NCBI GenBank assembly: GCA_038046345.1
Contig: JBBSWJ010000030.1
Span: 1 to 13,449, forward strand
Direction: 5' to 3'
DNA: 13,449 nucleotides
Source: Nanobdellota archaeon
GTDB lineage: Archaea; Nanobdellota; Nanobdellia; SCGC-AAA011-G17; JACPNG01
Made by a program: the position numbers and the translations under genes. Each line of letters starts with the position of its first letter. Position 1 is the first letter of the stretch. The notes beneath the pieces are model-generated. The model was given only the letters and a program-made list of their open reading frames with translations. It searched no databases and was not told where the DNA came from. Positions 1,762 to 13,449 of this stretch are shown one piece after another.

Positions 1762-1971
1762 CTAAATCTGTTGGTGTTCAAGAAGCATTTCAAAGAAGAT
1801 TAGACAATTAACTCGTAACTCTTTAGATAGCAATATTGAGATAGGCAGATTTTTGATAAAGTATTTTCTTGTTGCTCCTTTTTTTGCTTTTTCTGGTATA
1901 ACGCAGAGTCTGTTGATGTTAGTCATGTATTTTTCGTATCTTTTGTTGTTGTAGATATCGTTTTCTGCCAT
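1762..1971 (-). pseudogene. Decayed N-terminal fragment of a DPANN-type tyrosine recombinase/integrase (tentative)
   Basis: The start MAENDIYNNKRYEKY...RKYFIKN resembles N-termini I recall from Woesearchaeota/Pacearchaeota integrases. After KN the frame loses resemblance, and an alternative frame gives NRFRLLNG. SD-like GGGAG upstream. No catalytic domain is present. From recall, not searched. Confidence 0.45.
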
Positions 1972-2067: not shown

Positions 2068-2757
2068 TCACTTTATTTTTTCTAAATCAGATAGTAGTTT
2101 CTTGTTTCTTTCGAAAATTTTGCCATCAACCATACCAAAAACCCCTTGTAGCTCATCTTTAAATTGCTTGGAGTTAATTTGATGTAATATCTTAGAAAGT
2201 CTTTCTTTTAAGTCGTATCGTTCAGAGATTTCTTTTTTTACCCAGAGTTTCTCTTTCACAAGAGTAATCAAGAAAAAAAGATCTCTGATATCAGTTTGTC
2301 GACACGCAATGAATTTCATCACAAACAATGCATCAGCATCAATAATTCTCAGCTTTAGCCGTTCGCTAAATGTTTTCCCTTGTAGTTGTCGAACAGCAGA
2401 ATGCTCGAAAACCCAGTCAGCAGAGAATTTCGCATTAGTCTGTCGATCCAAAATTTCGCCGATCAGAATGTCCATACTTACTTTGAAGTTTTTTCCTAGG
2501 TTTTTCTCGTATCGCTCAAAACCTCCATCATAAGGAATTCCATGATGGTTTTTTATCTTATCATATCCTACTTCAAAAAGAGCCCGAGAGATCCCTTGGA
2601 GCACACTTTTATCCTTAATCACAACATCACAGTCCACAGAGAATCGGGGCAGCGTATAGGCATTGACTGCATACCCTCCAACCACGACAAATTCATGATT
2701 CCTAAGTTTTTTCAATGTCGCAAAGATTTCTTTCTCTCTAAGTGTTAGCTGTTCCAT
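2068..2757 (-). CDS. Pol-beta superfamily nucleotidyltransferase, AbiEii/DUF6036-like putative type IV TA toxin
   Basis: 229 aa. The N-terminal VVVGGYAVNAY..RFSVDCDVV is a GG...DxD NTase motif, with a later MKFIACRQTDIRD (K...R..D..D). Overlaps the upstream gene by 20 nt. Confidence 0.75.
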   Translation of the reverse strand: MEQLTLREKEIFATLKKLRNHEFVVVGGYAVNAYTLPRFSVDCDVVIKDKSVLQGISRALFEVGYDKIKNHHGIPYDGGFERYEKNLGKNFKVSMDILIGEILDRQTNAKFSADWVFEHSAVRQLQGKTFSERLKLRIIDADALFVMKFIACRQTDIRDLFFLITLVKEKLWVKKEISERYDLKERLSKILHQINSKQFKDELQGVFGMVDGKIFERNKKLLSDLEKIK

Positions 2758-3340
2758 ACTTCTCCTTCATATAATGATAAGGATACGCATAGAAACTATT
2801 TGATTTTGCAATCTTTTCTGTTGCGCTTAATGTTTCTACACATAAGTCATCTTTTTTTGTTGACTTTAAGGTCTTTACCGTGATGAAAATGACAAACTCT
2901 CCAATGGTTGTACCAGTATTCACATAATTCGGCACCCTATAACGATTAAAAAATGCCCTCCAGAAATTCAAATCTTTCCTTAAAACTTTGATATAATACG
3001 GAGATTTCTCTCTTCCTCGTTGAACGTAGGAATAATCCGACCAAATTTCTATTGCCGATAATCCTGTAAAGGCATATGGTCTCTTTGCTTGTTTGATGAT
3101 TTGAGGGACTTTAAACTCTAATAATCCCATTAAGATCTCTTCAGGGCGTATGCACTTATACGAATTTGAAGAAACTTTCTTGATCCAACCGTTATTGACC
3201 AACAAAGCAAAAATTTTCTTCTTCATACTCTGTCTAACAATCCAATCTAATTCTGACTGAGAAAATTCCTCATGTGCGCCATGTTTCGAAAAGAACAAAG
3301 CGTATGCTCTTAATCCATAGCCTGGAATCTCATTGTACAT
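2738..3340 (-). CDS. Winged-helix protein, putative AbiEi-like antitoxin/transcriptional regulator
   Basis: 200 aa. N-terminal wHTH-like pattern (EFSQSEL...KKIFALLVNNGWIKKVSSNSY) and C-terminal YAFTGLSAIEIW. It is the first gene of a two-gene operon with the NTase and is preceded by a palindromic operator. Confidence 0.6.
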   Translation of the reverse strand: MYNEIPGYGLRAYALFFSKHGAHEEFSQSELDWIVRQSMKKKIFALLVNNGWIKKVSSNSYKCIRPEEILMGLLEFKVPQIIKQAKRPYAFTGLSAIEIWSDYSYVQRGREKSPYYIKVLRKDLNFWRAFFNRYRVPNYVNTGTTIGEFVIFITVKTLKSTKKDDLCVETLSATEKIAKSNSFYAYPYHYMKEKYGTANT

Positions 3341-3591: not shown

Positions 3592-4833
3592 ATGGTTACT
3601 AAATACGACATATTCGAGATAATCCACCAAAATCATGCACCTATTAAACCAGCCGAGATAGTCAAAAGATTAAAGAAAGATAAATCTTTTTACAAGAATA
3701 TCTATAGGATTATTAATCAATTAAAAAAAGAAGGATTCTTAGTTAAGAAAAATCATGGGTTTGAATCAAAGAATTCAGAAAAATCTAAAATGCTTTTTGA
3801 CTTAATTGCCTATTGTTTGCATAATGGGATTAACTATAATTATCTTCTAGATGAAAGATTAGTTAGTTTCTTAAATTCAGCTATTAACAAAAAAGAGTTT
3901 CAACAAAAAGACTTTAGTATAGACTCGAAAACTTTTAGTAAGTATATAGCCATCCTAAACAAGTTTGGATTGCTTCTCATAATATCCAGAAAACCTCTCA
4001 AGGCGAGGTTATTTTATAATACTCTAATTAACAACTTACTTGTTTATTTTGGGTACAAACAAACATCCATAAAACTGTTTAATGTTGACTATTTAGACCA
4101 CATAGAAAAAGAGCTTATTTTATTTAAAAGATTAAAGAAAAATAATGAATCTGGATATAGGAAGATTGTTAGCGAATTTGAAATATTTTTTATTCAACAT
4201 AGCTTATCATTAGAAGGTAACCCCATAACACTTCCTGATACAATAAAAATCTTAAAAGACGAAATTATTCCAAAGGATCTAAGGAAAGAAGACATTGATG
4301 AGGTTCAAAATTATCAAAAAGCTATTCATAAAATGTTGAAAGATGCAACAGGCAAAAAACCGTTAACAAAAGAGTCTATTTTAGAGTATCATAGACTTGC
4401 TATGGAGCATAAGCATAAAATTGCTGGGGCAATAAGAAAAGAATCTGTTTATATCAAGAACAATCCAAACTTTAAGATCACTAAAGTATCAGAAATCGAT
4501 AAAGAATTAGATAAGCTATTAAAAGAATACAATAAATTTATGGATAAGAAGGATCCTCCTATCAAAGATATAATCAATTTTTCTGCATATTTTCATAATG
4601 AATTCCAACATATCCATCCTTTTTTAGATGGCAATAGCAGGACTACAAGACTGCTAACTTTTCACTTGTTACAATCTCATGGAGTGCCAATTCTAGATAT
4701 TCCGCTTGGATTATTGGATGAGTATTTGGAGCACACTAAAGGATCTAATGAAAGATTTGATAAAAGCCTATTTGAAATGCTACAAAGAATAATCTTATTC
4801 AATCTAAAAAAGATAAACTTTCTGTTAAGTTAA
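3592..4833 (+). CDS. Fic-domain protein (class II, autoinhibited type) with N-terminal winged-helix region
   Basis: Fic motif HPFLDGNSRTTR (nt 4615-4650). Inhibitory (S/T)xxxE(G/N) motif SLSLEGN (nt 4201-4221). N-terminal IKPAEIVKRL...YRIINQLKKEGFL is wHTH-like. Confidence 0.88.
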   Translation: MVTKYDIFEIIHQNHAPIKPAEIVKRLKKDKSFYKNIYRIINQLKKEGFLVKKNHGFESKNSEKSKMLFDLIAYCLHNGINYNYLLDERLVSFLNSAINKKEFQQKDFSIDSKTFSKYIAILNKFGLLLIISRKPLKARLFYNTLINNLLVYFGYKQTSIKLFNVDYLDHIEKELILFKRLKKNNESGYRKIVSEFEIFFIQHSLSLEGNPITLPDTIKILKDEIIPKDLRKEDIDEVQNYQKAIHKMLKDATGKKPLTKESILEYHRLAMEHKHKIAGAIRKESVYIKNNPNFKITKVSEIDKELDKLLKEYNKFMDKKDPPIKDIINFSAYFHNEFQHIHPFLDGNSRTTRLLTFHLLQSHGVPILDIPLGLLDEYLEHTKGSNERFDKSLFEMLQRIILFNLKKINFLLS

Positions 4834-4864
4834 ACAAGCATAAAGGGCTAAGTTTTAAATTATA

Positions 4865-4936
4865 TGCGCTGGCCGGGGTTCGAACCCGGGTCAGAGCGTT
4901 GGCAACGCCCTATGCTAACCACTATACTACCAGCGC
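4865..4936 (-). tRNA. tRNA-Gly (anticodon GCC), no intron, no encoded CCA
   Basis: GCGCTGG/CCAGCGC acceptor stem with discriminator A, anticodon arm GGGCG-TTGCCAA-CGCTC, T-loop GTTCGAAC. TATA TTTAAATA at 4959-4966 (minus strand). Confidence 0.97.
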
Positions 4937-4961
4937 ATTGTTCAGACTCACTAATTATTAT

Positions 4962-6146
4962 TTAAAAAGTTTTTGTAATGAGGTACCTGCTAGGACTAAT
5001 CCCAACACCGAATGTTGCTTCTATTTTAATGTTATCATGCACTACTTCAATCTCTGGATTAAGCTGATCAAGTCTCTTTCCAGTTATATCACCCAAATGC
5101 TGCAAGAATCCATTTAATTCATCAGACGTATTGTACAAAATGTTGGTTGTCATCTCTTTTCCATTAATTTCTACAACAACAGGCTTTCCAGGACCATCAC
5201 AAATTATTTTTTTTACGTTTTTATCTTTTAATAAAGGATCAATCTTACCATAAAATAATATATCCCTCCATGCATAGTATTTTATTGAATTATATTTCTC
5301 AGTATCAAATACTATACCTTTTTTTAAAAAGATTTTTTCTACTAACGGTTTTAAAAATGAATCATCTTTGACTATGTTCACATTTTTTTCTACATCTTTT
5401 CTTATACTTTTATATAACTCCGCTATAACACCCTGTTCAACCAAAGGTTCCGCCAAGTTGTATTTACCGCCACTTATTTCTACACTAGCTAGCGGTTTAT
5501 TACCCACCAAGATTATAGGGTAAGAAGTATTTTTCTCCTGTGTTGGATAATCAAGCACGGATTCTAACCCGGAGTCATTCGGACTTGGAGCCTCTGGTAT
5601 TTCTGGCTTTAACCTAATAGCTGGTTTTTTTAATTCTTTAGTATACAATGGTTTTATTGGACCTTTTGGTGGTATGTTTGGTTTTATGTTTTTTTGAGGC
5701 AATGGTTTTATCATTTTAAGCGGCGGTATTAAATCTTTAGCTGGCTCATGCATTAACGGGCTTACAACTCTTCTTTGAAATAATGGTTTTATAGGTTCTG
5801 GCAGATGGATATTCGGTTTTACTATCTTTAATGCAGGAGTTATATCACTAACAGCACCCTGCATTAACGGGCTTACAATTTTTCTTTGAAATAATGGTTT
5901 TATTTGTTTGTCCATAATACTGGGAGATAATACTCTTTTATCCAATACATTTTGTTCTATTTGTTTGCTTACCTGTTTCGGTGTTGGTTTAGATCGCTCT
6001 GATGCTTTTATCAATCCATAAAGAAATCTCTTTGCAAACTTACCACCATTACTGATTGGTTTTTCTTCTAGAATATGCAATATCTCTCTTAAGTGCTCTA
6101 ATCTCTCTTTCTCAAATTCGTCTCTTAAGAACTTAATGTCTTCCAT
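4962..6146 (-). CDS. Protein with Pro/Lys-rich repeat linker and a C-terminal domain resembling the N-terminal part of FlaI/VirB11/TadA secretion ATPases, lacking the ATPase domain
   Basis: C-terminal YYAWRDILFYGKIDPLLKDKNVKKIICDGPGKPV...TNI...ELNGFLQHLGDITGK matches the pre-ATPase region of that family. No Walker A/B before the stop. Start moved to ATG 6146 (MEDIKFL, 394 aa), 1 nt after the upstream gene's stop. Confidence 0.65.
   Translation of the reverse strand: MEDIKFLRDEFEKERLEHLREILHILEEKPISNGGKFAKRFLYGLIKASERSKPTPKQVSKQIEQNVLDKRVLSPSIMDKQIKPLFQRKIVSPLMQGAVSDITPALKIVKPNIHLPEPIKPLFQRRVVSPLMHEPAKDLIPPLKMIKPLPQKNIKPNIPPKGPIKPLYTKELKKPAIRLKPEIPEAPSPNDSGLESVLDYPTQEKNTSYPIILVGNKPLASVEISGGKYNLAEPLVEQGVIAELYKSIRKDVEKNVNIVKDDSFLKPLVEKIFLKKGIVFDTEKYNSIKYYAWRDILFYGKIDPLLKDKNVKKIICDGPGKPVVVEINGKEMTTNILYNTSDELNGFLQHLGDITGKRLDQLNPEIEVVHDNIKIEATFGVGISPSRYLITKTF
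5749..5903 (-). repeat. Intragenic 44-nt direct repeat with a 111-nt (37 aa) period
   Basis: 5749-5792 versus 5860-5903 are 42/44 identical (IKPLFQRKIVSPLM / IKPLFQRRVVSPLM). Further IKPL motifs (aatggttttat) lie near 5701 and 5647. Confidence 0.9.
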
Positions 6147-6147
6147 A

Positions 6148-6462
6148 TCAAAAGTCTGATCTAGGCAATGGTTTTGGAGGGAAGTTATCTTCCACATTAA
6201 CTCTTTCTCTTACATATCTCTCCAATAAGATCAACCCTCTTGCAATATTCTTATTTTGTTCTAATAAACTGTCTAATTTTCTTCGTAATGGTTCATCAGA
6301 TCCAGATTCTATATGTTTTGCTGCTTCTTCAAATAATGATACCATTGCATCTATCCTGCTAGTTAAACTGTTGATTGATTTGATAAGCTCTGTCGTTTTA
6401 TGTTGAAGGGCTAAAGAATTATCTACAAGTTTTTCAATAACGTCCTGAGAAGATTTTACCAC
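6148..6462 (-). CDS. Hypothetical coiled-coil protein
   Basis: 104 aa, GTG start with GGAGG about 9 nt upstream, heptad-like amphipathic helices, Pro-rich tail. Translationally coupled to the next gene. Confidence 0.7.
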   Translation of the reverse strand: MVKSSQDVIEKLVDNSLALQHKTTELIKSINSLTSRIDAMVSLFEEAAKHIESGSDEPLRRKLDSLLEQNKNIARGLILLERYVRERVNVEDNFPPKPLPRSDF

Positions 6463-8353: not shown

Positions 8354-10012
8354 ATGAGAGAGAAACTGAGCAAACCAAAATTTATTTTTATATCAGGAGG
8401 GGTGATTAGCAGCGTTGGAAAAGGAATATTCACTGCCTCTCTTGCATGTCTTATTGAATCTCAGGGGTATAAGGTTGAAGCTATTAAGATTGATCCATAC
8501 ATAAACGTTGACGCTGGTACTATGCGCCCAACTGAACATGGAGAGGTATTTGTAACAGCTGACGGCTTTGAAACCGACCAAGATCTTGGCAGTTATGAAC
8601 GATTTTCTTCAATGATAACCACCCAAAACCAAAGCTTGACTACTGGACAAATATACCTCAAAGTGATTAACGATGAAAGAAGCGGTAAATTCAATGGAAA
8701 ATGTGTTGAAGTTGTTCCACACATACCACAAGAAGTAATAAAAAGAATTTGTAAAGTTCAATCAGAAAAAAACGCTGATTTTGTCCTTGTTGAAGTAGGC
8801 GGCAGCGTGGGAGAATATCAAGCATTTCCATTTCTTGAAGCATCACGCATGATGAAGGGCTTGGGGATGGATACTGCTCAGATACATGTTGGTTATATTC
8901 CAACACCTACAATGGTTGGAGAACAGAAAACTAAACCTATACAAGAATCAATTAAAAAACTTAGAGAACAATGCGGAAATCCTGATTTTGTTGTAGCAAG
9001 AAGCCACGATGCATTAGATAATGTTAGAAAACAAAAAATATCAATGAGCTCCGGTCTTCCTTTAAGCCATATTATCAGCGCTTTTGATGATGACTTGATT
9101 TATCGTATTCCATTAAACCTTGCCAACCAAAATTTACATACTAATTTACTGCACTTATTTGGACTACCATTTGATATGAATAACTGTTTGAAAGAATGGC
9201 GTGAAATGGTGGCACATATTGAAAAGTTACAAAGTGGAGATAAAATAATTAAGATCGGGATTGTTGGCAAATATTTTAGCAACGGAAATTTTAGTTTAAG
9301 TGATAGCTACATAAGTGTTATTGAAGCTGTAAAACATGCTTCATGGCACAATGATAATAATGTAAAAATTTGTGCTATTAACGCTAAAGATTTTGAAGAT
9401 AAAATAAAAGATATTGATTACTTAAAAGAGTTTGATGGTATCATTATACCGGGTGGGTTCGGTGACTCTGGTATTAGCGGCAAAATTGAAGCAATTAAAT
9501 TCTGCAGAGAAAATAAAATTCCATTCTTAGGATTGTGTTTAGGCATGCAACTTTCTGTGATTGAATTCGCAAGAAATGTTTTAAACCTTAAGGATGCTAA
9601 CTCCACTGAATTTCATCCCAGCACTACAAACCCGGTTATATCTTTGTTAGAGGAACAGCTTAATAATGTAAGCCAACACCATATTGGCGGTACTATGAGG
9701 CTTGGCAGTTATACTGCCCGATTAAAAGCTGGAACAATTGTATCAGGAGCTTACGCATCATTAACTACCACTGAACGCCATAGACATAGATGGGAAGTTA
9801 ATAATAAATACAGAGCTGATTTAGAAGCTGCTGGTTTAGTTGTTTCAGGAGTTTATGAACAAAAAAATTTAGTTGAATTTATTGAATTACCTCAAAATAA
9901 GCATCCTTTCTTTGTGGGAACACAAGCCCACCCAGAATTTCAATCAAGATTTTTACGCCCAAGTCCTTTATTTAATAAATTTATTTCAGCTGTTATTAAA
10001 AACAAAGGCTAA
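8354..10012 (+). CDS. pyrG: CTP synthase
   Basis: GGVISSVGKG, KIDPYINVDAGTM, EHGEVFVT, glutaminase GLCLG, ERHRHR and HPE motifs. 552 aa. Confidence 0.97.
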   Translation: MREKLSKPKFIFISGGVISSVGKGIFTASLACLIESQGYKVEAIKIDPYINVDAGTMRPTEHGEVFVTADGFETDQDLGSYERFSSMITTQNQSLTTGQIYLKVINDERSGKFNGKCVEVVPHIPQEVIKRICKVQSEKNADFVLVEVGGSVGEYQAFPFLEASRMMKGLGMDTAQIHVGYIPTPTMVGEQKTKPIQESIKKLREQCGNPDFVVARSHDALDNVRKQKISMSSGLPLSHIISAFDDDLIYRIPLNLANQNLHTNLLHLFGLPFDMNNCLKEWREMVAHIEKLQSGDKIIKIGIVGKYFSNGNFSLSDSYISVIEAVKHASWHNDNNVKICAINAKDFEDKIKDIDYLKEFDGIIIPGGFGDSGISGKIEAIKFCRENKIPFLGLCLGMQLSVIEFARNVLNLKDANSTEFHPSTTNPVISLLEEQLNNVSQHHIGGTMRLGSYTARLKAGTIVSGAYASLTTTERHRHRWEVNNKYRADLEAAGLVVSGVYEQKNLVEFIELPQNKHPFFVGTQAHPEFQSRFLRPSPLFNKFISAVIKNKG

Positions 10013-11508
10013 AACTTCTTAAGCTTCAATGTTGGAAAGAACATAACCTCTTTTATGTTAACTGCATCTGTAAAAAGCATTATCATCCTATCAACCCCTA
10101 TCCCAAGACCACATGCGGGTGGAAACCCATATTCTATTGCTTCTAAGTATTCGTAATCTGTTTGTTGAGCCTCTTCAAACCCAGCCTCTTCTTTTTTCTT
10201 TTCTTCAATAAATCTTTTACTTAATTCTTGAGGGTCATTTAGCTCAGAGTAATTATTCCCGATTTCTGATCCAAACGCGAATACTTCAAAACGCTGAGTG
10301 AACCTTTCATCAATGCATCTTTTTGCTAAAGGTGAAACTTCTACCGGATAATCATATATTATTACCGGCTGGATCAATTTATCTTCTACTATCTCCTCAA
10401 AAACAAAAGCTATCATTTCACCAACAGTACTCATCTTATCTAGCTCTGCAAGTTTTTCTTTTGGTATATTCATTTTTTTAATTGCAGATTTTGCTTCTTC
10501 TTTTGTTTTCCACTTTAATGGATCTATACCACTGAATTTTTCTACTGCTTCAACTAATTTATACCTTTTCCATGGCCGCTTAACATCAAGGGTATGGTCT
10601 TTAAATTTTATCTTAGTCGTACCAAATAATTTTTTGGCAATAGCCTCAAATAATTCTTCAATTAAGTCCATCCCATACTTATAATCTTTGTATGCAATTT
10701 GTGCTTCAAACATTGTAAACTCCGGGTTATGATCAAAGTCTATCCCTTCATTTCTAAATACTTTAGTGATCTCATATACTTTTTCTATACCACCAACTAA
10801 AATTCTTTTAAGATACATCTCATCTGATATTCGCAGATAAAAATCATTTTTTAGTTCATTATGATGAGTAACAAACGGTTTAGCAAATCCGCCGCCATAA
10901 ATTGCCTGGAGAGTTGGAGTTTCTACTTCTACAAATCCTCTTTCATTAAAAAATGCCCTTAACTCTGTGATTATCTTAGTTCTCAACAACAATCTTTGTT
11001 TGACTGACGGATTCATTATCATATCTAAATATCTTTTTCTATATCTTTCTTCTACGTCTTGAATCCCATGCCATTTCTCAGGTAGCTGTCTTAATCCCTT
11101 TGTTAATATGCTAAAATCTTTAACATAAACACTTATCTCGCCGGTCTTTGTTGTAAAAATAGTGCCTTTCGCTCCGATTATATCACCAATATCTAATAGT
11201 TTTATTAAACTATACGCTTGTTTTCCTACGTCATCTTCTCTGAAGTATATCTGTATCCTTGCAAACTGGTCTTGTAAATGCATAAATGTTGCTTTCCCCA
11301 TGCCTCTTAATTGAACTATTCTTCCTGCAACACTCACTAAATCCTTTGTTTTTGTTTCTTTGTCTAAATGTTTATATTTTTCAAGCAAATCTTTTGAGTG
11401 ATCTTTTTGATCAAACGAATAAGCATAAGGATTAATTCCTTTTTTTCTTAGATCGCTTAATTTTCTTTCTCTTTCTTTTATCAAAGAGTCACTATATTTT
11501 TGCTGCAT
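10009..11508 (-). CDS. lysS: Lysyl-tRNA synthetase, class II
   Basis: N-terminal OB fold (VAGRIVQLRGMGKATF), motif 2 FRNEGIDFDHNPEFTMFE, motif 3 GLGIGVDRMIM. The 3' end overlaps pyrG by 4 nt. Confidence 0.97.
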   Translation of the reverse strand: MQQKYSDSLIKERERKLSDLRKKGINPYAYSFDQKDHSKDLLEKYKHLDKETKTKDLVSVAGRIVQLRGMGKATFMHLQDQFARIQIYFREDDVGKQAYSLIKLLDIGDIIGAKGTIFTTKTGEISVYVKDFSILTKGLRQLPEKWHGIQDVEERYRKRYLDMIMNPSVKQRLLLRTKIITELRAFFNERGFVEVETPTLQAIYGGGFAKPFVTHHNELKNDFYLRISDEMYLKRILVGGIEKVYEITKVFRNEGIDFDHNPEFTMFEAQIAYKDYKYGMDLIEELFEAIAKKLFGTTKIKFKDHTLDVKRPWKRYKLVEAVEKFSGIDPLKWKTKEEAKSAIKKMNIPKEKLAELDKMSTVGEMIAFVFEEIVEDKLIQPVIIYDYPVEVSPLAKRCIDERFTQRFEVFAFGSEIGNNYSELNDPQELSKRFIEEKKKEEAGFEEAQQTDYEYLEAIEYGFPPACGLGIGVDRMIMLFTDAVNIKEVMFFPTLKLKKF

Positions 11509-11704: not shown

Positions 11705-12733
11705 TTACAAATTTTCGATGATATGAAAGATGAGTTTTCTTCTAAAATTGAAACTATTTCCTAGACGGGCATATCCAGACCAGCCATAAAATGTTTTCAA
11801 CACTGACCGTTTTGAATTCACATTGAAACTACACCCGTCAAGTAAGCTATTGATTCTTGCATAGATCTTTTGTTTATTCCTTCGTAAAATTATCCGATGA
11901 TGATAAAAATTCTTAAATCCTAGAAAACGGATTCCAGTTTGTAGAAGAACAATTTTACATTTATCTGGATGTAATTCTAAGTGAAGAGCCTTCAAGAATT
12001 TGTTAATTTTGGTTTCATAAATAATTAATGTTTCTTTTGATTGATGGAGAATAATAAAATCATCAACATAGCGTATGTAATATTTAGCTTTCAATTTATG
12101 CTTAACAAACTGATCAAGTTCATTTAAGTAAATGTTTGCAAAGAACTGGCTCGTCCAGTTTCCAAGTGGCATGCCCTTTCCTTCTTCCTCTCCATGATAA
12201 TTGTTTAATATTTTTCTGATGAGCCAAAGAACGTTCTCATCTTTAATATACTTTTTAATCATGTCAAGAAGAATTTCTTGATCTACTGTTTGAAAATAAT
12301 GTTTGATATCCGCTTTGAAAATATAACAACTCTTTGTGTTGTTCTTTGTTACTTTCCGTTTAAATTGATCAAACCTCCTCAATGCTAAAGATGTTCCTTT
12401 TCCAACTCTACTTGCATAACTATCATAAACTAACTTAGGATCAAAAATAGGATGAATAATATTAATCAACGCATGATGCACAACACGATCACGGAAATCA
12501 CTAACACAAATCTTTCTTGTCTTTGGATCTCTCAAAATAAACTGCTTTAATAGCTGCGGAGTGTAAGTCTTATTTTGTAATTCTATAAGCAATTTAGAAA
12601 GTTCTTCCTCGTAATGCTCTTCAAACTTTTGAACGCTTGCGCGATAGGTCTTTCCTTCTTTTGCTTTGTCATATGAAGCTTTTAGGTGTTCATAGGTACA
12701 TAATTGTTGCCAAAGATGGTTGTATGTTTTCAT
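11705..12733 (-). CDS. DGR reverse transcriptase
   Basis: ICVSDFRDRVVHHAL, DIKHYF, GMPLGNWTSQFFANIYL, YIRYVDDF and FLGF motifs. True start is probably ATG 12733 (MKTYNHL, 342 aa) with GGAG 6 nt upstream. The listed TTG 12829 extension is just the TR read in frame. Confidence 0.95.
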   Translation of the reverse strand: MKTYNHLWQQLCTYEHLKASYDKAKEGKTYRASVQKFEEHYEEELSKLLIELQNKTYTPQLLKQFILRDPKTRKICVSDFRDRVVHHALINIIHPIFDPKLVYDSYASRVGKGTSLALRRFDQFKRKVTKNNTKSCYIFKADIKHYFQTVDQEILLDMIKKYIKDENVLWLIRKILNNYHGEEEGKGMPLGNWTSQFFANIYLNELDQFVKHKLKAKYYIRYVDDFIILHQSKETLIIYETKINKFLKALHLELHPDKCKIVLLQTGIRFLGFKNFYHHRIILRRNKQKIYARINSLLDGCSFNVNSKRSVLKTFYGWSGYARLGNSFNFRRKLIFHIIENL

Positions 12734-12750
12734 GGTAAGCTCCGAAGAGA

Positions 12751-12832
12751 GTGTCCATTCACGAGCAGGCCTATTGTCATTGTTGTTGGCATTGATGTTG
12801 AAGTTGTTGTCGTTCGAACCCAACAGCAAAGC
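12751..12832 (-). repeat. DGR template repeat (TR)
   Basis: 82 nt reading ALLLGSNDNNFNINANNNDNRPAREWT, with 26 adenines and 9 AAY codons. Aligns to VR 13083-13161. Confidence 0.95.
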
Positions 12833-13068
12833 TCAGTAGCCTTGTCATCCTTCCGTTCACTGCTCCTTTAATGTTCACATGTGATGTTACATAATTATCG
12901 GAGCTGTATTTTATGACATTACTGCCTTGATAACAAGACGTGTGGGCAACTCTCTCAGCCAGATGCAATTTAATTGCATGATAGGCATCGGAGTCAACCT
13001 GTTGTTTATGAGAAATTAGTTAAAGCTTTTGCTATTCTATAAAGTTTCATTTTTTAAACCTTTATCTC

Positions 13069-13449
13069 CTATGAAATCACCCGCGCCCACCCACGAGCAG
13101 GCCTATCGACATCGTTGCTGGCATCGATGATGAAGTTGAGGACCAAACCCAACAGCAAAGCCCGTCGTTGCTCTCTTGCCGGTACACCAAACCGATACAA
13201 GTACGAATACTCTTCAAACAATTCATAAAAAACTTCCTCCACAACACTAGCCCCTGCATTGAATGATAATCGTGCCACTTCCTCCTTGTCAGTAGCTTCA
13301 CTCAAATACCCACCCTCACCGCGTAATACTCCATCCATCGAATACTCATTTGGGCTTCCAACTTCATGCAACACCCTATCAACACTACCAGCCTGATAGA
13401 CTAAACAAGTGCTAGTCATCATCCACGGTTTTGATGAACCAAAATCTTT
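13069..13449 (-). CDS. DGR target protein, 5'-partial; C-terminal VR, probably C-type lectin fold
   Basis: The frame is open to the window edge (KDFGSSKPW precedes the listed MMTST), so ATG 13422 is probably internal. It ends RALLLGLVLNFIIDASNDVDRPARGWARVIS, with the VR in the last ~30 codons. The CLec fold is inferred from known DGR targets. Confidence 0.85.
   Translation of the reverse strand, partial: KDFGSSKPWMMTSTCLVYQAGSVDRVLHEVGSPNEYSMDGVLRGEGGYLSEATDKEEVARLSFNAGASVVEEVFYELFEEYSYLYRFGVPAREQRRALLLGLVLNFIIDASNDVDRPARGWARVIS
13083..13161 (-). repeat. DGR variable repeat (VR)
   Basis: 79 nt. Versus TR: 13 substitutions at TR adenines, one C>T, and one 3-nt deletion. Confidence 0.95.

Follow-up and report, generated by a model that had tools for sequence, protein, structure and literature searches.

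What do the hypervariable proteins encoded by diversity-generating retroelements (DGRs) of cellular organisms do? For the DPANN archaea, the usual guess is that such targets act as host adhesins. The stretch of DNA analyzed here, referred to as the window, is the whole of contig C30 (13,449 nt; JBBSWJ010000030.1) of genome G000 (assembly GCA_038046345.1; 821 kb in 35 contigs, 97% complete), which belongs to an archaeon of the Nanobdellota. One end of it is occupied by an intact, real DGR, an ordinary member of a known DPANN group, whose parts in the window all lie on the minus strand. In the explanation that we favor, with a probability of about 0.85, this is an intact chromosomal DGR that diversifies at least two lectin-type targets, these targets belong to an operon with genes for an AAA+ ATPase and a von Willebrand factor A (vWA) protein, and their proposed role is that of recognition subunits.

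The retroelement and its targets

The reverse transcriptase (RT) of the element, P0001, has an open reading frame of 342 codons with the motifs LGNWTSQ and YVDD, which conform to the patterns [ILV]GxxxSQ and YxDD of the DGR clade. Over its full length it is matched best in the PDB by the RT of the Bordetella DGR (bRT, 8ub7; E 4e-38), with the best group II intron RT at 1.5e-19, and it matches the phage family phrog_1423 with an E value of 9e-107. Among 50,697 phage records its best relative is the RT of the archaeal virus ANMV-1 (39% identity, 98% coverage), which belongs to a published DGR (Paul 2015, PMC4372165). The first-pass annotation of the window had proposed an intact DGR-type RT; the motifs and the matches to bRT and to the ANMV-1 enzyme agree with it, and in similarity searches the protein groups with DGR RTs. 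Pattern scans of genome and metagenome contigs gave no close relatives, which were found by a search of related genomes: RTs 50–56% identical to P0001 occur in 24 of 60 such genomes, often several per genome, and, where inspected, they adjoin pairs of a template repeat (TR) and a variable repeat (VR) whose mismatches fall on adenines.

In the window, the TR (12832..12751) stops 17 nt ahead of the RT start codon, whose ATG begins at 12733. Aligned to VR1, it shows one 3-nt gap, located beside an AAC, and 13 of the 24 aligned TR adenines are changed; the only other difference is TCG>TTG, and one more adenine is changed in the GAG just upstream. This geometry (an 82-nt TR 17 nt before the ATG and a 79-nt VR ending the upstream gene) and the count of 13 in 24 with a single non-adenine change had been given by the first-pass annotation and were reproduced exactly. 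In formal alignments the bias is strong in three VRs, as mismatches fall on TR adenines in 14 of 16 cases for VR1, 20 of 22 for VR2, and 21 of 23 for VR3 (P 2e-7 to 1e-12). For VR1, the hypergeometric test gives P = 2e-7 with the whole repeat and 2e-5 with the core alone. None of the adenine-containing TR codons is able to mutate to a stop, as had been claimed before and as a codon check bore out.

All three VRs end in the same sequence, GGGTGGGCGCGG, and the TR carries GAATGGACACTC at the corresponding place. The two probably act as a site at which mutagenic homing is initiated (IMH) and its template counterpart, IMH*. The same G-versus-A logic has been described for nanoarchaeal DGRs, with TGGGGT set against TGGAAT (Paul 2015, PMC4372165). 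The last four TR adenines lie within the IMH*-like end, and all three VRs read G there; the diversified core therefore comprises 22 adenines, not 26. These fall in 13 codons, nine of which are AAY, and allow 1.8e13 DNA or 7.4e12 protein variants. Thus, the earlier count of 26 TR adenines stands, while the space of 4^26 drawn from it shrinks to a usable space of about 4^22. A tRNA-type mini-intron within the TR was considered and ruled out, as the TR is collinear with VR3, while VR1 is 3 nt shorter and VR2 is 6 nt longer.

Table 1. Features of the DGR locus in the window (position 1 is the first base of the contig).
Feature	Positions	Strand	Evidence
Template repeat (TR), 82 nt, 26 adenines, 9 AAY codons	12751..12832	-	adenine-specific mismatches against three VRs
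IMH*-like TR end GAATGGACACTC	12760..12749	-	TR counterpart of GGGTGGGCGCGG
Variable repeat VR1 (79 nt), forming the final 26 codons of T1	13083..13161	-	aligned to TR, one 3-nt gap
IMH-like VR end GGGTGGGCGCGG	13081..13092	-	identical in VR1, VR2 and VR3
DGR reverse transcriptase P0001, 342 aa, intact	11705..12733	-	RVT_1, E 6e-28
Target gene T1, 3' part (126 codons and stop), 5' side cut by the contig end	13069..13449	-	open reading frame; 80% identical to P0003
RT-16 RNA motif (Rfam RF03019), structured leader	12831..12977	-	cmscan 72.2 bits, E 1e-10
14-codon remnant reading frame MKLYRIAKALTNFS	13006..13050	-	start and upstream spacer like the vWA gene start after VR2 (C26)
lysS, class II lysyl-tRNA synthetase, downstream housekeeping neighbor of RT	10009..11508	-	tRNA-synt_2, E 1e-84

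A scan of the genome for further VRs, suggested in the first-pass annotation, led to VR2, so that the element has at least two targets. VR2 lies on the minus strand of the 2.1-kb contig C26 (about 1957..1870), where it ends a truncated paralogous gene, T2, and it differs from the TR in length by a 6-nt insertion after an AAC. A 2.95-kb contig (L004) from a groundwater metagenome of Hainich well H51, representing the same population, carries VR2 unchanged together with a full-length T1-like gene. Its product, P0003, has 258 aa, and the gene ends in VR3, which is collinear with the TR. The P0003 gene equals T1 of the window until about 45 nt before the VR and is T2-like thereafter; a third paralogue, a recombination product or a chimera made in assembly could each look like this.

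Between VR1 and the TR, the gap is filled by a match to the RNA motif RT-16, found over the full model (1–158) at a score well above the gathering score of 50 and ending at the first bases of the TR. The same motif occurs at 11 related RT loci, where it lies just 5' of the RT gene, and in both relatives with a mapped TR (the loci L112 and L113) it also ends at the TR start. A 63-aa reading frame in the gap has no Pfam or PHROG match. In a literature search, we found no paper on the RT-16 motif itself and none linking it to DGR templates. The locus is one more case of this orphan RNA leading a DGR template in an element that lacks a recognizable Avd gene.

The targets have no Pfam or PHROG match, as judged for P0003, and when the profile of their family was compared with the PDB, no chain came under an E value of 0.19, which leaves the family with no solved relative by sequence. 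Nevertheless, the target is not an orphan. An exhaustive search gathered 121 cluster representatives of 230–300 aa, whose C-terminal frame reads roughly ...VLG....F.I.A.....RPARG, with the variable columns coinciding with TR adenines. An AlphaFold model of P0003 built from this family alignment (predicted local distance difference test, pLDDT, 86) is structurally most similar to AvpA (5ioo; Z 10.9, root-mean-square deviation 3.3 over 163 residues, 12% identity), followed by Thermus TaqVP (5vf4; Z 8.9) and then by many C-type lectins (Z 7–8.5). Its VR is short, with a fixed aromatic residue, F238, in the middle. The AvpA motifs GxxVVVYAH, HPxxxPFxG and RFxGV were not seen in P0003. The targets are thus predicted to adopt a C-type-lectin fold with the VR as its binding face and, in sequence, to form a distinct and unnamed family relative to AvpA; on the modeled fold, this lectin-type family spans more than 100 sequence clusters. 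The first-pass annotation had called for the full target gene and its structure: the middle of T1, beyond position 13449, is not assembled, and the modeled structure at hand is that of its relative P0003. Neither a signal peptide nor a 19-residue window hydrophobic enough for a membrane helix was found in P0003. Within each genome, the target paralogues share a near-identical N-terminal segment, and across genomes this segment retains an IPDxF/W-x-G core.

The likely operon beyond the contig end

The window stops inside a target gene, which is why the surrounding operon was invisible to the first-pass annotation. Two other contigs of genome G000, C8 and C26, extend the picture. On C26, a gene for a 577-aa protein comes 10 nt after VR2, and its stop codon overlaps the ATG of a further target gene broken off after 37 codons. 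The end of C8 shows a similar overlap, here between the stop codon of a gene for a 494-aa AAA_5 ATPase and the start codon (ATG) of a target gene. The target genes at the ends of C8 and C26 break off at the same base. In all, three contigs of this genome (C8, C26 at both ends, and C30 at 13449) end in paralogous target genes, two of them at the same base. Assemblies break at such repeated, hypervariable genes, and cassettes of this kind are therefore easily missed.

The AAA+ protein matches PF07728 (AAA_5) and has a Walker A motif, GDTGSGKT, and a Walker B motif, VVDE. The 577-aa protein combines an invariant HExxH motif with a C-terminal vWA domain that has a complete metal-ion-dependent adhesion site (MIDAS). 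Across 30 homologues, the residues H87, E88, H91, D390, S392, S394 and D508 do not vary, and T460 hardly does. Homologues with 52–61% identity are present in more than 120 clusters from Pace- and Woesearchaeota, many of them on contigs of about 2 kb. The protein has no Pfam or PHROG match, nothing in the PDB resembles it by sequence, and no signal peptide or hydrophobic segment was found in it. Its modeled C-terminal domain matches NorD best, and NorD, the Rea1 MIDAS domain and the vWF A1 domain are all retrieved at a probability of 1.00.

A DnaG-type primase gene adjoins the AAA+ gene on C8, and in relatives of the same family that lack the DGR, lysS and this primase gene are only 0.85–1.9 kb apart. 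This closeness fits the ends of C8, C26 and C30 being neighbors, although lysS is inverted here. The locus would then likely run AAA+ (MoxR-like) > T2 > HExxH-vWA > T1 > RT-16/TR > RT > lysS. The same arrangement is seen on the long contigs of three related DPANN archaea (L112, L113 and L114), where the order is (small reading frame) > AAA_5 > target(s) > vWA > target > RT-16/TR > RT. In L112 as in L113, one TR is accompanied by three VRs. Of the six pairs, five have every mismatch (11–15 per pair) on an adenine; the sixth, whose VR is an outlier located 5.9 kb upstream of the L112 cassette, has 7 of 8 mismatches there. The vWA family is present in nine relatives, eight of which possess the RT as well, and in six cassettes from five genomes with both genes, these lie 1–2.2 kb apart on one strand. 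The cassettes of G000, L112, L113 and L114 contain just the small upstream reading frame, the AAA+ gene, the targets (separate genes of about 222–285 aa), the vWA gene and the RT gene. The 55-aa reading frame before the AAA+ gene of G000 has no ribbon-helix-helix match, unlike the one at the same position in L113.

Stretches that resemble parts of the vWA gene also occur at two other places. The remnant reading frame between T1 and the TR (Table 1) begins like the vWA gene, which suggests a trace of a duplicated target/vWA junction, with T1 possibly having arisen from the junction of T2 and the vWA gene. In the L004 contig (L004:2157-2953), the 32 nt that follow the IMH-like end of the T1-like gene resemble the 3' part of the vWA gene.

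Another relative, G022, also has the operon. At L107 (G022:C1:486000-502000), an AAA+ gene and a vWA gene are accompanied by six or seven lectin-fold paralogues sharing an N-terminal segment. No RT is found near this array, and neither of the two templates of G022 matches it; the ATPase/vWA/lectin unit can thus occur where no template fits its lectins. The TR/VR pairs of G022 themselves (L116:2697-3213 and L117:2604-3110) show a spectrum unusually narrow for DGR mutagenesis, with A-to-G in 13 of 13 and 10 of 11 changes.

Proposed role of the element and competing explanations

From these observations, a scheme can be proposed. A transcript would carry the RT-16 leader, the 82-nt TR and probably the RT reading frame. 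The RT would copy the TR, putting random bases opposite template adenines, and the cDNA, guided by the GC-rich IMH-like end GGGTGGGCGCGG, would replace roughly the last 24 codons of at least two paralogues, T1 and T2. The 13 adenine-bearing codons would allow about 7e12 protein variants, never with a stop. According to the model, the varied residues would make up a C-terminal hairpin and loop around an invariant Phe in a target of about 258 aa. The targets appear to be cistrons of one operon with the MoxR-like AAA_5 ATPase and the 577-aa HExxH-vWA protein, and the lectin proteins would be exchangeable hypervariable recognition subunits, docking through their shared N-terminal segment on an ATPase/vWA machine inside the cell. 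The repeats with their adenine bias, the type of RT, the RT-16 match, the fold models, the gene order of relatives and the joins of contig ends belong to what the analysis showed; present activity, cDNA priming, the physical coupling of targets to the ATPase/vWA pair, and the ligand are the parts of this scheme that we infer.

The furthest-reaching form of the proposal is that the lectin proteins plug into a cytoplasmic MoxR-type ATPase/HExxH-vWA machine and make it a reprogrammable immune-like or surveillance system of DPANN archaea. We offer it tentatively, at clearly less than even odds. If true, it would run against the published view, according to which DPANN DGRs lack conflict-system partners and act in host attachment only. 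Small, apparently cytoplasmic lectin-fold targets are here translationally coupled to AAA+ and vWA/HExxH genes in a cassette that recurs across genera. Such a cassette makes target function testable, through the docking of the N-terminal segment on the vWA MIDAS and through the ligand of the complex.

Several observations weigh against the favored explanation as a whole. Avd (PF05635), typical of phage and bacterial DGRs though no defining part of them, has no match in the whole 97%-complete genome, where a very divergent helper is possible. Many DGRs, but not all, have a GC-rich hairpin or cruciform after the VR; folding of the sequence downstream of VR1 and VR2 gave no convincing or significant hairpin, just a weak 7-bp stem with wobble pairs (z-score -0.6 for VR1 and -1.8 for VR2). 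The 3-nt deletion and the non-adenine change of VR1 and the 6-nt insertion of VR2 may have been left by older or imperfect events. Three assemblies from one well have the same VR2, which provides no direct evidence that the element is now active. In this genome, the central part of both target genes (about residues 38–130) was sought and is not assembled; the order C8 > C26 > C30 therefore does not come from continuous sequence and rests on synteny and matching break points. That the targets are coupled to the ATPase/vWA pair is read from gene order, the MoxR class of the AAA+ protein from a modest AAA_5 score (30.8 bits, cut-off 22) plus its vWA partner, and G022 has the same operon without a matching template.

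Could the varied lectins instead be surface or secreted adhesins for host attachment, with the ATPase/vWA genes unrelated to them or needed only for assembly or export? Host interaction is the role favored for DPANN DGR targets (Handa 2016, PMC5006420; Dore 2024, PMC10907252), vWA/MIDAS domains often mediate adhesion, and the fold matches of the vWA protein include integrin I domains and pilins. However, the absence of a signal peptide and of a hydrophobic segment from both the target and the vWA protein, the stop/start overlaps of AAA+ with target and of vWA with target, and the interleaved AAA+/target/vWA order recurring across genera argue against this reading. In addition, the best structural match of the vWA domain, NorD, is the partner of a cytoplasmic MoxR ATPase. 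We consider the adhesin role unlikely.

Much the same low probability is assigned to the possibility that the cassette sits on a mobile island or an integrated virus and works for that element (in host attachment, for instance) instead of for the cell. Its distribution is patchy: of the 16 other genomes in the family, 1 has the RT, compared with 23 of 44 from other families of the order. In L113, a tyrosine integrase and a tRNA gene (L113:13514-14854) lie 1.4–2.7 kb beyond the RT, a hint that integrative elements can carry the cassette. Together, these two observations make a mobile-island origin possible. Toxin-antitoxin pairs upstream of the cassette in L112, the viral origin (ANMV-1) of the closest viral RT, and the short lysS–primase gap of DGR-less relatives, which would fit an insertion of roughly 7 kb here, can be read in the same way. 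On the other hand, lysS is inverted relative to the genomes G012 and G014, which rules out that the cassette was cleanly inserted between it and the primase gene. The targets lack a tail-fibre context, a signal peptide and a membrane anchor, and the flanks consist of housekeeping genes: the chromosomal neighbors of the DGR are lysS, pyrG and a thermosome gene. Pfam and PHROG scans of the window and the C8 end revealed no virus structural genes (no capsid, terminase or portal) and no integrase, and the PHROG matches there were just the RT and a Fic-domain protein. The nearest relatives of the thermosome gene come from Candidatus Woesearchaeota from groundwater (72–73% identity). As judged from these genes, the host is a Woesearchaeota-type DPANN archaeon and the DGR is chromosomal, in line with the first-pass view of a cellular DGR next to lysS with no phage genes.

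Three further loci of the window were noted. A gene pair at 2068-3340 (minus strand), consisting of an AbiEii-like nucleotidyltransferase of 229 aa with a weak Pfam match and an overlapping upstream gene of 200 aa without a family match, may be a type IV toxin-antitoxin pair. The Fic/DOC-domain protein (3592-4833, plus strand; 413 aa) strongly matches phrog_11900 (E 5e-34), among phage families of unknown function. The stretch 4864-6197 (minus strand) encodes, next to a tRNA-Gly gene, a protein of 411 aa that matches the archaellum ATPase FlaI only weakly and over part of the length.

Somewhat less probable still is a fossil DGR, in which past mutagenic homing is recorded in the sequence, the element is dead, and the VRs now evolve as ordinary sequence. 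The VR1 deletion and C>T change, which the template does not explain, the VR2 insertion, the identity of VR2 in three assemblies, and the missing Avd speak for such a relic. Against it stand the intact RT frame with all catalytic motifs, the TR that retains nine AAY codons of which none is stop-prone, the IMH-like end kept identical in all three VRs, and VR3 of the sister assembly L004, collinear with the TR and differing on adenines. About 7% of DGRs show in-frame indels next to runs of AAC, which have been ascribed to RT slippage (Wu 2018, PMC5758913). Furthermore, the three assemblies bearing VR2 come from replicate filters of one well and are therefore not independent populations.

Finally, the reading in which the locus is no DGR, and a repeat that arose by chance or duplication happens to adjoin an RT of the group II intron or retron type, can be regarded as refuted. 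The strongest NCBIfam match of the RT is indeed a group II intron RT/maturase model, yet its 158.7 bits are far under the cut-off of 300, and the protein has 342 aa only, with a match that extends to position 332 of the 353 in the model. The match to bRT surpasses that of any group II RT by 19 orders of magnitude, and adenine-specific mismatches are found in three independent VRs and in relatives.

Comparison with known systems

DPANN DGRs, lectin-fold targets, several targets per template, and in-frame indels have all been published (PMC4372165, PMC5758913, PMC5006420). Closest to the element described here are the DUSEL4 Nanoarchaeota and other DPANN DGRs with AvpA (PMC4372165; PMC5006420; 5IOO). 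They are likewise chromosomal and found in archaea with very small genomes, and they share a short VR of about 26 codons, rich in AAY and free of stops, and an IMH/IMH* pair with G-versus-A logic. The roughly 7e12 variants estimated here fall within the range of 7e10 to 9e12 given by Paul 2015 (PMC4372165). AvpA itself is the best structural match of the modeled target (Z 10.9) and has a short VR with a fixed mid-VR aromatic residue as well (PMC5006420). In contrast, identity to AvpA is 12%, its motifs are not visible in P0003, and the VR lies here at the very C-terminus (6 to 8 codons past the IMH-like end), whereas AvpA has a 46-residue tail. No AAA+/vWA operon around the targets is described in these papers (PMC4372165, PMC5006420), unlike what is found here.

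With the Bordetella BPP-1 DGR (bRT, Avd, TR and Mtd), the element shares the RT family, the adenine-specific transfer from TR to VR, an IMH at the 3' end of the VR, and a lectin-fold target with a C-terminal VR. It differs in that no Avd was found and an RT-16 leader lies 5' of the TR. As the TR stops 17 nt before the RT start, there is no long TR–RT spacer, unlike in BPP-1. In addition, the element is cellular, and its targets appear to be small cytoplasmic proteins, not tail fibres.

The operon invites a further comparison. MoxR-vWA conflict systems called 'VMAP ternary', with a DGR-varied lectin, are known from cyanobacteria and gammaproteobacteria (Kaur 2020, PMC7159879; Dore 2024, PMC10907252). 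They, too, combine the coding sequences of a MoxR-class AAA+ protein, a MIDAS-bearing vWA protein and a lectin (FGS) domain diversified by a DGR. Unlike in those systems, where the lectin is fused to the vWA component, it is here a stand-alone protein; the cassettes of G000, L112, L113 and L114 hold no VMAP protein or recognizable effector, the vWA protein has an N-terminal HExxH region, and the host is an archaeon. The cassette is thus a counterpart of the VMAP-ternary systems and not a member of them. NorQ/NorD and further MoxR-vWA chaperone pairs (9QHE; PMC13036017) provide another parallel, with NorD being the best structural match and an AAA_5 gene nearby in the same operon. They differ in that the operon studied here has no metal-enzyme client, that its clients would be hypervariable lectins, and that sequence similarity of NorD to the 577-aa protein is too low to detect.

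A literature search that did not cover Paul 2017 (Nat Microbiol) returned no paper describing an archaeal case of DGR targets in an ATPase/vWA context. Compared with the systems above, the DGR itself is ordinary; the interesting aspect is that its stand-alone lectin targets are set in an archaeal AAA+/vWA operon, in an element led by RT-16 and lacking Avd.

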